A stretch of DNA of 64,000 bases, taken from an uncultured Planctomycetaceae bacterium (GTDB lineage: Bacteria > Planctomycetota > Planctomycetia > Isosphaerales > Isosphaeraceae). The stretch lies in contig CAWIAD010000001.1 of assembly GCA_963833985.1 (NCBI GenBank), forward strand, positions 3,072,001 through 3,136,000. The letters run 5' to 3'. The notes under the pieces are model-generated. The model was given only the letters and a program-made list of their open reading frames with translations. It had not been told where the DNA came from and made no database searches. The translations under genes and the position numbers were made by a program. Positions 2,876-42,023 of the stretch are shown piece after piece. Each line of letters opens with the position of its first letter. Position 1 is the first letter of the stretch.

Positions 2876-3306
2876 GGTGAAGGTCGCTCCGGATCGAATT
2901 CCAGCGGAGTGCCGGCACAGTGGCACCGGCCTGGTGGACGAGCGGAAACCGGGATCGGGCGGGAGAGGTTACGCCCGGGCAGACGTGCCTGTCTGCACCG
3001 GAATGCTACCAGAGATTGGACCCAACATGGCCTCAGCCATCAAGCCCCGACTCCGCTCACTCCCTGGAATGGCGTCTTTTCTCGGTTCGATGGACCGGGT
3101 TCTCATGGAACCTGGCCGTCTCGGTCTGTCGCACGCGCCCGGTTCGGTCTCCGATCCGCCCACGCCAGCCTGACTGCGCACCGGTCATGCCCCCGTTTCT
3201 TGTGGCCAGCCGGCACCCGGCCACGACAGAATGGACGTCCCGTGAGACACTTTCAGTCTTTCTCTCACAGCAACCCACACACTCCTTCAAAACGTCGGGA
3301 GGTACC

Positions 3307-20850: not shown

Positions 20851-20917
20851 GCGTGGGACAAGATTCCATTCTTGTCTCTTCAAATCTTCTGATGATCCTC
20901 TCGTTTCGTGACAAGAT
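20851..20917. repeat. REP-like inverted-repeat pair; right arm split by the intron (remainder at 24927-24943)
   Basis: Left arm GCGTGGGACAAGATTCCATTCTTGTC (20851-20876); rejoined right arm GACAAGAT|CGGAATCGTGTCCCACG; similar element at 41941. Confidence 0.75.
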
Positions 20918-21081
20918 GTAGAGTCGAGGTGTGGCGCGGTGGGCTCGAGTCGATGGCTCGGCTGGGCCTCGTTTCCACACCCCGCTCATCAAACTGGACG
21001 GGCGGTGTTCCCGCATCCAGCTTTCGGACAAGGCTTGTCTCATCGGTTGAGTTCACACGTTCGCTCACGAAACCATCGCGG

Positions 21082-21681
21082 CTAGGTTCGTTGCAGCTGG
21101 TAAAGATGCAACTCCTGGTGCAGGTATCTGTCAGGGTAGCGTCTGAGCCCCTGACCCGGCACCTTGAACTTCGCACACAACCACTGACGTACCCGGTAGC
21201 GGACGTGGTGGTTGACTTGGCGATAGGCTGGGCTCACCGTTCCGATGCGAAAATAGTTGGACCAACCGCGGAACTTGCGATTGATCCGACCAATCTGCAT
21301 CTCGACGTCCTGTCCAGTGGTCTGGCGCGTCGTCATCGCACTGATCTCGCTGCACAGCCGAATGATCTTCTTCCGCGATGGGCGTGACCCTATGTAGGAT
21401 CGGCCCGTTCGTCGGTCGTAGTTCCGGCCGAGGGTATAACCCAGAAAGTCGAACGTCTCCTCAGGCAGGTGGCACAGCCGCGTCTTGGTCTCGTTCACCG
21501 TTAACTTCAGCCTGGACATCATCTTCCGCATCACCGTCATGGCCTCTTCGGCCGTGCCGCGACAGCAGATGACGAAGTCGTCCGCATAGTTGACGATTCG
21601 CGCGACCAGACGCCGCTCGTGTCCACCAGTCTTCCATCCCTTCACAAATCGTCGCATGTAGATGTTGGACAACAATGGTGA
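21082..21681 (-). pseudogene. ltrA: 3' half of the intron RT/maturase (199 aa)
   Basis: SPLLSNIYM, IVNYADDFVI, KLTVNETKT, FDFLGY and RGWSNYF. Confidence 0.9.
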
Positions 21682-23335
21682 GATCACGCCCCCAACAATG
21701 TTGCGAACTACGTTGTTGGGGGCCTTTCTCAAAAGGGGACGGACTGACCCGATACACGATGCGGACCTCCTGCTCGTCGATCTCGACCTTCTTCACCAAG
21801 GCCCGAACCACCTCCCGTCGCGTGGCCCAGTCCGGCTCTTGCAACCCTTGCGAGACGCGACGTGCGAACTCCTCCAACTGACCGATCACCAGTCGCAATT
21901 CCGCCTCTTGGGCGGCCTCGCCGATTCGTTGTCGATGCTCCTCCGCCAATCTCGAGAGGCGCGTCCTTGCCGCCGAGATCCGGGGCTCGAACTCCGATTT
22001 GTCGAGCAACCCGTCGCCGTAAGCATCGATTAATCGAGAAATCATCTTTTTCACATTATTTATCAATTTGCCGAGATGCTCCACCTCCTGATTCGGCCCG
22101 CCCTGGGCACCCTGCAGCCGCCGCTCGTACTCCTCCCGGACCCGCTCCGGCTCGGACAGGAGACCTCGTAAGTCCTCCCAGACGGCAGCGTCAAGGATAT
22201 CGGTGCGGATCTGCTTGTTCCAGCAGAGGCGCTGCCCGCCGAAACGATAGGCGTCAGAGCCCGTGCAACGGTAGTACGCGTAGCGGACCCTACCCTTGCC
22301 CTCGAACGCGGCTCGGCTCGTCGGCTTGCCGTAGCAGCCGTAGCCGCAGCGCTTGCAGACGACCAGGCCCTGGAGCAGATATCGGCCACCGCCGGGCCGG
22401 TCGCGACGGCGTTGCCGGTTCTCTTCAAGCTGGGCCTGGACAGCCAGGAAGAGGTCTTCGCTCACCAGCCCGGGGACTTCAATGAAGATTTGATCTTCCG
22501 AGGATGTATCAACCCGTGAGACCGGTCGCCGGGAGTGTTCGGGGCGGCCTCGCTGCGGGCGGAGGCGTTGAGGTTTGAACTCACCTGAGCGCGTCTTGCC
22601 GAAGGCCGCGGTCCCCTTGTAGGCAGGGTTCTTGAGGATCAACCAGACCGTCGCGCGATCCCAGGCCGATTTCCCGGTCCGCGTCGGGATACTGTCGCGC
22701 CGGAGGCGTCGGCACACCTCGCCGATCGAGCACCGTTCCTGACCCACCCATTCGAAGATCTTCCGCACGACCCGGGACTCTTCAGCGAGGACCTGATAAC
22801 GCGCCTCGCCACCTCCCTCGTGCTTGCCGATGTAACGGTAGCCGTACGGTGCGCCGCTGAGGACGTTGACCGAACCGCGGCGGGCGGCGTGTTGCTTGCC
22901 CCTGCGGCAACGCTCCATGATCTTGGCGCGCTCGTATTCCGCGATCATTCCCTGGACCTGAAGCAGCAGGTCGGCTTCCGGACTGCGGCCGACGGGGTTG
23001 CGCAAGAAGACGACCTCGACACCGCACCGGATAAGTTCCTCAAGGATCAAGACCTGATAGGCATACTTGCGTGAAAGTCGATCCGGATCGAGCATATAGA
23101 GGCGGTCGATGGCTCCAGCGGCGGCTTGGTCCCGAAGTCGCTCGAGTGCCGGTCGGGCCAGGATGTAACCGCTGACGCCGTCGTCCACGAAGTGCAGTTC
23201 GGGCTCGCATTCCAAGCCATCAGTGGCGATCCGCTGAGTGACCGCCTCGAGCTGGCTGGCGATCGTGTCCTCCTTCTCCTGCTGCTCCCCCGAAACCCGG
23301 GCGTAGAGCGCCACGCGGAGATTGTCCGTGATCAT
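21461..23335 (-). CDS. Large serine recombinase; last 73 aa read out of frame from RT DNA
   Basis: ALYARVS (catalytic Ser), DDGVSG..RPALERL, DRLSR, GAPYGYRY, LKNPAYKG, YLLQGLVVCKRCG...YYRC zinc ribbon, coiled coil. Confidence 0.93.
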   Translation of the reverse strand: MITDNLRVALYARVSGEQQEKEDTIASQLEAVTQRIATDGLECEPELHFVDDGVSGYILARPALERLRDQAAAGAIDRLYMLDPDRLSRKYAYQVLILEELIRCGVEVVFLRNPVGRSPEADLLLQVQGMIAEYERAKIMERCRRGKQHAARRGSVNVLSGAPYGYRYIGKHEGGGEARYQVLAEESRVVRKIFEWVGQERCSIGEVCRRLRRDSIPTRTGKSAWDRATVWLILKNPAYKGTAAFGKTRSGEFKPQRLRPQRGRPEHSRRPVSRVDTSSEDQIFIEVPGLVSEDLFLAVQAQLEENRQRRRDRPGGGRYLLQGLVVCKRCGYGCYGKPTSRAAFEGKGRVRYAYYRCTGSDAYRFGGQRLCWNKQIRTDILDAAVWEDLRGLLSEPERVREEYERRLQGAQGGPNQEVEHLGKLINNVKKMISRLIDAYGDGLLDKSEFEPRISAARTRLSRLAEEHRQRIGEAAQEAELRLVIGQLEEFARRVSQGLQEPDWATRREVVRALVKKVEIDEQEVRIVYRVSPSPFEKGPQQRSSQHCWGRDLTIVVQHLHATICEGMEDWWTRAASGRANRQLCGRLRHLLSRHGRRGHDGDAEDDVQAEVNGERDQDAAVPPA

Positions 23336-23700
23336 GGTTTGTCAAACCCCCCCGACCTTGGACTGGATAGTGTGGACCACAGTCGCGTGGTTGCGGCTGG
23401 GTCGCGGCCGATCCAGGCGCTGCGAAACGACCGGGATCAAGACCTGATATGCACGCGCGATCAATTGCTCCTGAAGCCGAGTGAACTCGAAGTGGCGGGT
23501 GACAGGAGGACTGAACGTGGGCCTCCGTGGGGACGTGATCATGTCGACTCCTCCTCTCCGAGAGCGCGGCCGCCAGCCTGCCTTGGATCGGGATCGAGTC
23601 GGGGCTGCCATCCGTGCCCGTACTTCGGTCGAAGCCGCGATCTGGAAATGACAGAGTCAGGAATCAGGGACGATTTTGCAACATTGTTGGGGGCGTGATC
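21682..23700 (-). mobile_element. About 2.0-kb large-serine-recombinase integrative element with 23-bp perfect inverted ends and GATC core
   Basis: GATCACGCCCCCAACAATGTTGC at 21682-21704 and its exact reverse complement at 23678-23700; removal restores the RT frame. Confidence 0.88.
23342..23542 (-). CDS. Small basic 66-aa protein upstream of the recombinase (candidate directionality/accessory factor)
   Basis: Strong GGAGGAG RBS before ATG 23542; stop lies 6 nt before the recombinase ATG. Confidence 0.6.
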   Translation of the reverse strand: MITSPRRPTFSPPVTRHFEFTRLQEQLIARAYQVLIPVVSQRLDRPRPSRNHATVVHTIQSKVGGV

Positions 23701-24395
23701 GGTGCACCTTGCGGTGTACCCATCCCCTGGTCTTTATTCCGGGTCGTTCGATGGCGCTGCCCCTTCCCGTCGGTTTCTTCCACCGGTGTTTCCAGCCACA
23801 TCTTGATCAGCCGCAGGACGCGACCGTCGCTGATGCGCCGTGACGCCGATTTCATTAACTCGGAATGGGGTATGCTATCGAAATATCCAGATAAGTCCGC
23901 GTCCACCACCTCGGTGTGCCCCGTCTTGAGCAGCCGTTCGACTTCGCGGACGGCGTCCAGGGCGCTGCGCTCCGGGCGGTAGGCGTGTTGTTCCGGCTCC
24001 AGGTCGGCCTCGAAGATCGGCTCCAAGACCAGCACCGCAGCCATCTGCACCACACGATCCTTGATGCAAGGAATGCCCAGCGGCCTTTGCTTGCCGTCCC
24101 CTTTGGGGATGTACACGCGCCGCACCGCCTGGGGTTGATACGTCTCCTTACGAAGTTGTTCCGCCAGTTCGTCCAGCCATCGTTCCTTCCCGGACGCCTC
24201 GATGTCGGCGAAACTCTGGCCGTCGATCCCCGGTGCGCCGCCGTTGGCACGGCAGCGTTCGTAGGCGAATCCCAGAACGTCACGTCGATAAATCTTGTCG
24301 TACAGGACGTAGAACCGATAGTTGGGCGCGTTCTTCGCTTTGGTGTGCAACGCCGTCTGCAACTTCCCGACCTTCAGTGGAGGTGATAGACTCAC
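23697..24395 (-). pseudogene. ltrA: 5' half of the intron RT/maturase (233 aa)
   Basis: RFYVLYDKI, GAPGIDG, VRRVYIPK..GKQRPLGIP..DRVVQ, VVDADLSGYFDSIPH and GTPQGAPI. Confidence 0.9.
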
Positions 24396-25061
24396 GCCAA
24401 TCTCCCGGCTGTCTGCCGCTTGTTGCGTTGACCTTGAACCAAGGCCCCTTCCCTCGACCGGAGTTACCCGGCGTCGACGGTACTACGGGCCTCTCCGCCA
24501 CCCCAGGCAGCCCGGCCGGTCCCTCGCGGGCGTCCGGTTGAGGGTCACGCGCCCTCACCGCTTGGGGTTTCCCGTGTTGTGTTGATCTCCGTGTGCCGAC
24601 ATGCCGTCGTCAATACCCCGGTGGCCCGCTGGGTTCTGATCGCTCGTGGGGCGGCCTATTCCAACCGTTTCCCTTTCATCCCCAGCGACGGCGGCCTTCC
24701 CCATATTCCAGCAAGGTCGGCGACCACATTGGACTTTTCGAGGCCTGCTCAACGTTCACTCGCGTTACGGCCTGTCGGTTCGCTGCATCGCCAAGCGACA
24801 CATCTGTCTCGAAGGCTCCGACGGTTTCGTCTCCTCCACCGCCGCTCCGATAGCTACCGGCTGGAGCGACCCAGTTGCCGGGTGGGAGTTACACCCACTG
24901 AAGACCAACACCTTTCCACGGCGCACCGGAATCGTGTCCCACGAGGCCGGACCTCATTGCATGGACTCTGAGAAGTTTGACGCAGATGAACGAACGAATC
25001 AAGAGTACAGGTGTTCCGAACCACGTGCTGTCTTTCATTCAGCACAGACCGGCCGCGGGGC

Positions 25062-41940: not shown

Positions 41941-42023
41941 GCGTGGGACAAGACTCCATACTTGTCGTTCTTATCGCTGCCTCATCGGCTCATCAATGGC
42001 AAGCCAGGGACCTTGTCTCACGC
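41941..42023. repeat. Second copy of the REP-like inverted-repeat pair; right arm overlaps the sufSE 3' end
   Basis: GCGTGGGACAAGACTCCATACTTGTC (41941-41966) and degenerate inverse GGCAAGCCAGGGACCTTGTCTCACGC (41998-42023). Confidence 0.7.

Follow-up and report, generated by a model that had tools for sequence, protein, structure and literature searches.

A group II intron that carries a serine-recombinase element and probably homes to one position of a REP in a planctomycete genome

We analysed a stretch of 64,000 nucleotides, which we will call the window, from an uncultured Planctomycetaceae bacterium (assembly GCA_963833985.1, contig CAWIAD010000001.1, positions 3,072,001 to 3,136,000). 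On the minus strand of the window, positions 24926-20918 hold a composite element of 4009 nt, which consists of a group II intron of 1994 nt and a 2015-nt insertion within it. The intron itself interrupts a short repeat, a repetitive extragenic palindrome (REP). We consider it highly likely that this F-like intron has guide sequences that match one position of the REP and that it spreads by ordinary retrohoming into intergenic copies of the repeat.

The 10.2-Mb assembly contains 13 intron 5' ends and 13 intron 3' ends. Seven of the copies are composites in the orientation seen in the window (orientation A), two have the inserted element inverted, two are intact, one is broken by a contig end, and one is diverged and internally deleted; the other 12 are near-identical to each other (at least 99.8%). 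We rebuilt the target sites, and 12 of the 13 fit the REP consensus with 0-3 mismatches, all interrupted at the same base. The remaining site is not a REP. An earlier reading of the window, made from its letters alone (the sequence-only reading), had proposed homing to an abundant intergenic repeat and a nest of recombinase within intron within REP. The census supports both proposals: all but one of the 13 copies share a single REP position, and of the 168 intact REPs, 166 are intergenic (according to a crude codon-model gene finder; the genome is about 80% coding). That reading had started from the flanks of the window's copy. Once the intron is removed, they join up as the inverse of the arm at 20851-20876, and by eye 22 of 26 positions match. 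It was also correct that the family recurs near 41941.

The REP unit is 24 nt long and is itself a hairpin, with a GTRG-type tag at the 5' end, an 8-bp stem, and a 4-nt loop; the intron is inserted at the loop's 3' edge. This agrees with the description of GTAG-type REPs (a GT[AG]G tag followed by a stem of 5-13 bp and a short loop). There are 168 intact, empty REPs in the genome (up to 3 mismatches) besides the 12 occupied ones. The intact REPs form 76 clusters, 48 of which have two or more units, and the reversed genome gave 0 matches. Eight of the 13 congeners carry the exact pattern, and none of the other 107 genomes from the family does. Insertions in these intergenic repeats are probably tolerated, and the REPs would act as a safe harbour. 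Many REPs lie within a dispersed repeat of greater length, in which doublets have a constant spacing of 74 nt and a subtype with GGGT (see below) forms 35-nt tandem runs. The REP sequences of the window are:

20853..20876, plus strand: intact REP unit, the partner arm of the doublet (GTRG-type tag and hairpin)
20910..20917, minus strand: 3' fragment of the REP that the intron interrupts (3' exon); 20917 is intron-binding site 3 (IBS3)
24927..24942, minus strand: 5' fragment of the REP that the intron interrupts (5' exon); IBS1 is 24927-24932 and IBS2 is 24936-24939
41942..41966, plus strand: second, empty REP copy (2 mismatches; no match in any of 100 shuffles)

To locate the exon-binding sites (EBS) that pair with these exon sequences, we used covariation across homologous introns. 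The homologues come from 121 genomes of the family and from a pattern scan that yielded 103 loci. Dereplication reduced 111 pattern matches to 90 with a recognisable 5' end; 63 were used for covariation and 87 for exon motifs. The 27 that were left out of the covariation were from this genome, truncated, or without a recognisable loop. The guide sites and the hairpin discussed below are:

24705..24710, minus strand: EBS1, intron positions 217-222 (from covariation; delta at 24711 pairs with delta' at 24745)
24731..24734, minus strand: EBS2, intron positions 193-196, GUCC (from covariation)
24613..24613, minus strand: EBS3, intron position 314, U (from covariation)
24652..24667, minus strand: conserved domain I stem-loop beside alpha', not EBS1 (from covariation and fold)

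Intron positions 217-222 pair with exon positions -1 to -6 at 333 of 378 positions, across 39 alleles in the 63 homologues; the shuffled expectation is 47%, and 0 of 2000 shuffles reached the observed value. In an unbiased scan of domain I, these positions ranked first with a z of about 19, compared to 3.9 for the next window, and these z values are inflated because the homologues are related and the shuffles ignore kinship. EBS2 and exon positions -10 to -13 are paired at 171 of 251 positions (shuffled, 57%). This is the best 4-nt window, with a one-base shift in some homologues. Of the 23 homologues that have a 3' exon, 20 have a Watson-Crick pair between EBS3 and the +1 base, and delta' (intron 182) can pair in 63 of 63.

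The sequence-only reading had placed EBS1 in the loop of a hairpin at 24667-24652. The hairpin is present and folds as claimed. As EBS1, its loop (intron 264-269) fails: it pairs at 143 of 372 positions, as expected by chance (shuffled, 39%), and 43 of the 63 homologues have the same hexamer there regardless of their target. This contrast between the two loops is independent of the kinship effect. The hexamer UGGAAU simply occurs twice in domain I, once in the true EBS1 and once in this loop 47 nt downstream, which is a coincidence. EBS1 thus maps elsewhere, which that reading had named as grounds for giving up its proposal, yet homing to the REP survives as a conclusion.

Within the genome, occupied and empty REPs differ at IBS2. 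GGAC is found at 13 of 13 occupied sites but at only 54 of 168 empty REPs (Fisher p = 3e-6, using the 12 REP sites). The commonest REP subtype here has GGGT at this position (60/168) and is never occupied; we did not find it in five REP-bearing congeners. We propose that the intron would reverse-splice into single-stranded DNA, where EBS1 (6 bp) and EBS2 (4 bp) would direct it together with a loose EBS3 contact. EBS2 would choose the GGAC subtype, insertions that hit genes would be lost, and intergenic insertions are likely to be tolerated. GGGT could pair with EBS2 via two wobbles, so EBS2 is a likely but unproven filter.

Another explanation for the choice of REPs is additional recognition of the REP hairpin, or of the distal bases of the REP, by the intron or its protein, much as class IIC introns recognise terminators or attC sites. 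The targeting of REPs would then be active and more than the outcome of pairing and selection. We think this is unlikely. Among 85 minimal matches to IBS2 plus IBS1 in the genome, 9 of 34 within REPs are occupied, versus 1 of 51 elsewhere (p = 0.0009), as this explanation would predict. But 39 of the 50 empty non-REP matches are within predicted genes, and if only intergenic matches are compared, the counts become 9 of 34 and 1 of 12 (p = 0.25). A hairpin requirement is not supported once coding sites are excluded. In its favour, 30 of the coding matches are on the sense strand, where splicing might make an insertion tolerable, and all 30 are empty. On the other hand, the occupied non-REP site has full matches to IBS1 and IBS2, and only 5 of its 8 stem positions pair, so it gives no sign that the hairpin itself is needed. 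Also, a folded REP stem would hide IBS2, and the exon ends of the homologues vary freely alongside their EBS alleles. Base pairing plus selection suffices to explain the distribution.

The boundaries and anatomy of the composite are consistent with a group II intron. Its ends fit the group (GUGYG at the 5' end and AY at the 3' end), Rfam identifies a fragment of group II domain I at 24900-24760 (RF02003, 98.9 bits), and a catalytic domain V and a domain VI could be folded. In class F, alpha' is expected at the tip of a stem-loop in DId3; here it was placed by covariation, and in the energy fold it falls within a multiloop. The gene for the reverse transcriptase (RT) is split in two, with RVT_1 in the upstream part and RVT_1 plus GIIM in the downstream part. 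There is no endonuclease domain: profiles from Pfam and NCBIfam found none, and the RT open reading frame (ORF) terminates after domain X. The features of the intron are:

20918..24926, minus strand: composite element, intron plus insertion (boundaries computed)
24639..24870, minus strand: pairing of alpha (24870-24864) with alpha' (24645-24639), with a compensatory double change in 5 of 53 sequences
23701..24395, minus strand: N-terminal part of the RT gene, ending at the PQG motif (ORF and profile search)
21082..21681, minus strand: C-terminal part of the RT gene, with YADD and maturase domain X (ORF and profile search)
20918..21025, minus strand: domain V (21025-20991, with a 5-nt loop) and domain VI (fold)

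Given these features, and one pairwise comparison (50.6% identity over 431 amino acids to the protein of Ni.ha.I1), we classify the intron as F-like and endonuclease-less. An RT-X protein without an endonuclease domain and a 5-nt domain V loop are what is expected of class F (IIF, or g3), although the 5-nt loop is common to IIE and IIF (PMC3753933). Ni.ha.I1 and D.a.I1, of class F/g3, likewise have an RT-X protein without endonuclease and are of similar size to the 432 amino acids and 1994 nt found here (PMC3552965). In the available part of that paper, the loci of class F/g3 are an IS4 transposase or "putative non-coding sequence," and targeting of REPs or terminal inverted repeats (TIRs) does not appear. 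Class IIC, whose members read hairpins, does not fit: an EBS2 is present and covaries, and the insertion is inside the loop instead of downstream of a stem-loop. EBS2 was described as dispensable for splicing, with a proposed role in homing (PMC3753933), and the bias in IBS2 subtype supports that proposed role.

The insertion within the intron is an element with a large serine recombinase. The segment 23700-21682 is 2019 nt if both GATC cores are counted, for a net insertion of 2015 nt:

21682..23700, minus strand: serine-recombinase element with 26-nt terminal inverted repeats (21682-21707 and 23675-23700) and a GATC core at both ends
21461..23335, minus strand: ORF for a large serine recombinase (Resolvase, Recombinase, Zn ribbon), whose frame extends beyond the end of the element in the window's orientation
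23342..23611, minus strand: 89-amino-acid ORF, 5' of the recombinase, with no match in Pfam and NCBIfam

The Resolvase, Recombinase, and Zn-ribbon domains and the short integration core are those of the large serine recombinases. Our guess is that the 89-amino-acid protein is a helper or a directionality factor. The two copies of the intron that lack the element encode an uninterrupted RT of 432 amino acids (TIGR04416, 357-361 bits, above the cutoff), which places the insertion point at the codons after the PQG motif. In the regions 21082-21732 and 23664-24395 of the window, the end of the element provides in-frame codons that resemble the RT's own motif, as well as a TTG start, so the C-terminal half of the RT and maturase (216 amino acids) could be translated apart from the N-terminal half.

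The element is present in introns in both orientations, and two free copies are at unrelated sites in the genome. A palindromic core permits a serine recombinase to integrate in either orientation. The same GATC is used in introns from two related genomes, G039 (inverted; the recombinase is 80% identical) and G046, and these host introns have targets other than the REP. The nest is thus the product of two independent targeting events. In our proposal, the recombinase element would integrate on its own, and in either orientation, at the GATC within the PQG motif of the RT gene. Tn4451 (TnpX) and Tn5397 (TndX) are also mobile elements that are driven by one large serine recombinase. Compared to them, the inner element is only 2 kb, has no cargo, has terminal inverted repeats, and prefers a site in the RT motif of an intron. 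We did not find a report of a recombinase element that targets the RT genes of introns, in a literature search that saw mostly abstracts and had little reach into subscription papers.

One of the copies with an inverted element (L002, G000:C2:2143754-2149057, in this assembly) has an additional insertion of 1295 nt, with terminal inverted repeats, in the 3' part of the RT gene. This is a fourth level of nesting, and an intact intron lies ~3 kb downstream. Also, the assembly breaks (at the starts of C1 and C2 of G000) inside one copy of the intron, exactly at the recombinase element. Such a break might mean that the element varied in orientation, or was excised, within the sequenced population; the repeat by itself could also have caused it.

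Did the composite spread as a unit? One single-nucleotide polymorphism (SNP) of the intron, at intron position 3260, has one allele in 7 of 7 copies with orientation A; this allele is absent from the two inverted and the two intact copies. Orientation and this SNP co-segregate in 11 of 11 complete copies, which would be expected by chance once in 330. The split between the seven copies and the other four favours spread as a unit, with RT supplied by the intact copies, much as driver proteins act in Thermosynechococcus elongatus (PMC2882425). In our proposal, copies with an interrupted RT gene would depend on RT from the two intact ones, and the seven composites in the same orientation probably spread as a unit. 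A different account, which we consider possible though somewhat less than probable, is that the intron spread in its intact form and the recombinase element was inserted later into each copy, or excises and reinserts. The element is mobile by itself, given its two free copies, its two orientations, and its use of the same site in G039 and G046, and its SNPs agree only in part with those of the intron. A long cargo makes an intron less mobile. Smaller introns were described as more mobile (PMC2882425), and we count this in favour of later insertion. Later insertion does not predict the co-segregation in 11 of 11 copies or that no intact copy has the allele of orientation A.

We consider it very improbable that the copies multiplied at the DNA level, by duplication, by gene conversion, or by movement of REPs that carried the intron along and was driven by a REP-associated tyrosine transposase (RAYT). 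The discordant SNPs suggest recombination between copies, and several copies have longer flanking repeats in common, as multiplication at the DNA level could produce. But the junctions are exact to the nucleotide, the REP variants and the neighbourhoods differ, one copy is not in a REP, and a search with one query found no cognate RAYT in this genome. In the congener G009, five REP units surround a frameshifted RAYT-like ORF (NF047646, E = 1e-15, 57.7 bits, below the cutoff of 80), and in the congener G007, two REP units are ~100-160 nt from a RAYT-like orthologue (67% identity). In this genome, the REP family flanks 0 of 7 Y1 transposase loci, and that query found no orthologue of the RAYT, so its REPs look orphaned. 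One locus of this genome (L013, G000:C1:1080971-1084141) encodes a RAYT above the NF047646 cutoff (93 bits) beside a different hairpin with a GTAG-type tag, which suggests that there is a second REP family.

The relatives of the intron suggest how it could have reached the REP. The closest are ~91% identical across domains I-III (with the EBS regions removed) and have other alleles of EBS1 and either of two alleles of EBS2. Upstream of the insertion site, at exon positions -15 to -8, 39 of 87 homologue junctions have GGGGWSAS with at most 1 mismatch, as compared to 0-3 of 87 at nine other offsets. This motif was described for the TIRs of tyrosine transposases (PMC3733652, PMC6006769). In 13 of the 14 rows for relatives' genomes, three target patterns of this kind recur 3-39 times (controls, 0-1), and the 15-mers targeted by the homologues are present in 11 of 35 loci of Y1 transposases versus 0-2 in ten random sets. 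Because the REP and one type of TIR have a common G-rich head, a change in EBS1 alone would shift the intron onto the REP. We infer that such a change brought the intron to the REP, from a lineage that would otherwise reside in TIR repeats of the GGGGWSAS type. Many junctions without the motif belong to a more distant clade of the tree (whose root was not tested).

In our reading, then, the three guide sites would match one position of a genus-specific REP and the spread would be ordinary retrohoming. Several observations weigh against it, besides the inflated z values. Neither mobility nor splicing was observed: in the public read sets, the best share of words was 0.30, four sets were taken as contigs, and no junction of an empty site, a circle, or a splicing product was usable. 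These data are too thin. The REP consensus was derived from the occupied sites. The fit of the guides is imperfect, as EBS1 pairs at only 3-4 of 6 positions at three sites, and the +1 base is A at eight sites, T at three, and G at two, which leaves EBS3 (U) unpaired at 3 of 13. Given the possible wobbles with GGGT, the choice of subtype may have another cause. The UGGAAU allele of EBS1 was found in 0 of 63 homologues and in 0 of 400 sampled genomes of the phylum, and the single match in 120 genomes of the family was a different allele. The search for a cognate RAYT orthologue in this genome failed, with one query (best match 34%, partial query). As for the lineage, 48 of 87 junctions have no strict TIR motif (38 of 87 with a relaxed motif and register), and the fetched flank contains a Y1 transposase at only 6 of 87. 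Within the genome, other SNPs conflict with a single tree of the copies, and the diagnostic SNP, just 15 nt away from the recombination core, might by itself favour one orientation. Separately, a scan of metagenomes for the junction of REP and intron gave four matches: three without similarity to the intron and one that ends 12 nt past the junction.

A broader scenario is more doubtful, and we offer it tentatively. The planctomycete F-like introns might be a lineage that specialises on the repeats of HUH tyrosine transposases, with EBS1 switching between families of TIRs and REPs and EBS2 keeping the G-rich head. The recombinase element would be a parasite that is carried through the RNA, with RT acting in trans, and the GGGT subtype (60/168 here, 0 in five congeners) would be an escape variant, which would make this a three-level system of parasites with an arms race over the repeat. 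REPs were already known as landing sites for DNA insertion sequences (IS), and group II introns were known in the ends of IS and behind terminators. Retargeting of one lineage between REP and TIR families would join both fields, and it would offer an escape from target saturation. The system also tests, in nature, the still open proposal that EBS2 serves in homing in introns of classes E and F, where it is dispensable for splicing. If the 4-kb composite homes in trans, then an intron without an endonuclease naturally carries 2 kb of cargo. This would bear on the design of targetrons and on how one mobile element rides another.

Parts of this system resemble others. RmInt2 from Sinorhizobium meliloti GR4 is also endonuclease-less, occurs as several identical copies within a target that is itself repeated (the inverted repeats of ISRm17), and works with a 4-bp EBS2/IBS2 pairing (PMC4615759). 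Unlike the intron described here, RmInt2 is in class D and targets the end of an autonomous IS instead of a dispersed REP with about 170 copies; the available part of that paper does not mention a recombinase insert. IS1397, IS621, ISKpn1, ISPsy8, ISPa11, ISPpu9/10, and ISRm19/22 resemble our intron in that nearly all copies are at one fixed position of a REP, but they are moved by DNA transposases and are not RNA-guided retroelements (PMC1525189). A group II intron of P. putida is tabulated there at only 2 of 9 REP associations. In Thermosynechococcus elongatus, divergence of EBS sequences in TeI3/TeI4 led to new targets, with one family in an IS200 element, and copies without an ORF are mobilised in trans by a driver protein (PMC2882425). 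These introns are CL/IIB1 with an endonuclease, and their dependent copies are shortened, in contrast to the 2 kb of extra cargo here. GTAG-type REPs with their RAYTs, and TIRtrons with TIRYT, have similar tagged hairpins, with dimers or clusters that flank a tyrosine transposase (PMC3733652, PMC6006769); the main text of PMC3733652 does not contain the word "intron." In the same literature search, we found no account of an intron that homes into REPs.

Two loci from related genomes (L017 in G030 and L025 in G042) have introns in head-to-tail tandem, with one starting exactly at the 3' end of the other. Such tandems were described for RmInt2 in a homing assay (PMC4615759).

We also examined replication-strand bias. 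GC skew is weak and irregular. The cumulative skew of G000:C2 changes direction several times, once near two copies of the intron at 5.37-5.42 Mb, but the signal is weak. The reversals might mark inversions between copies of the intron.

The genome contains a second, unrelated group II intron (G000:C2, ~4725500-4727500, minus strand), with an intact RT (TIGR04416, 341 bits), which we take to be class E-like. By eye, joining its flanks gives the reverse arm of a TIR type that also flanks the Y1 genes in L010 and L012. Two intron lineages in this genome may use transposase-linked repeats.

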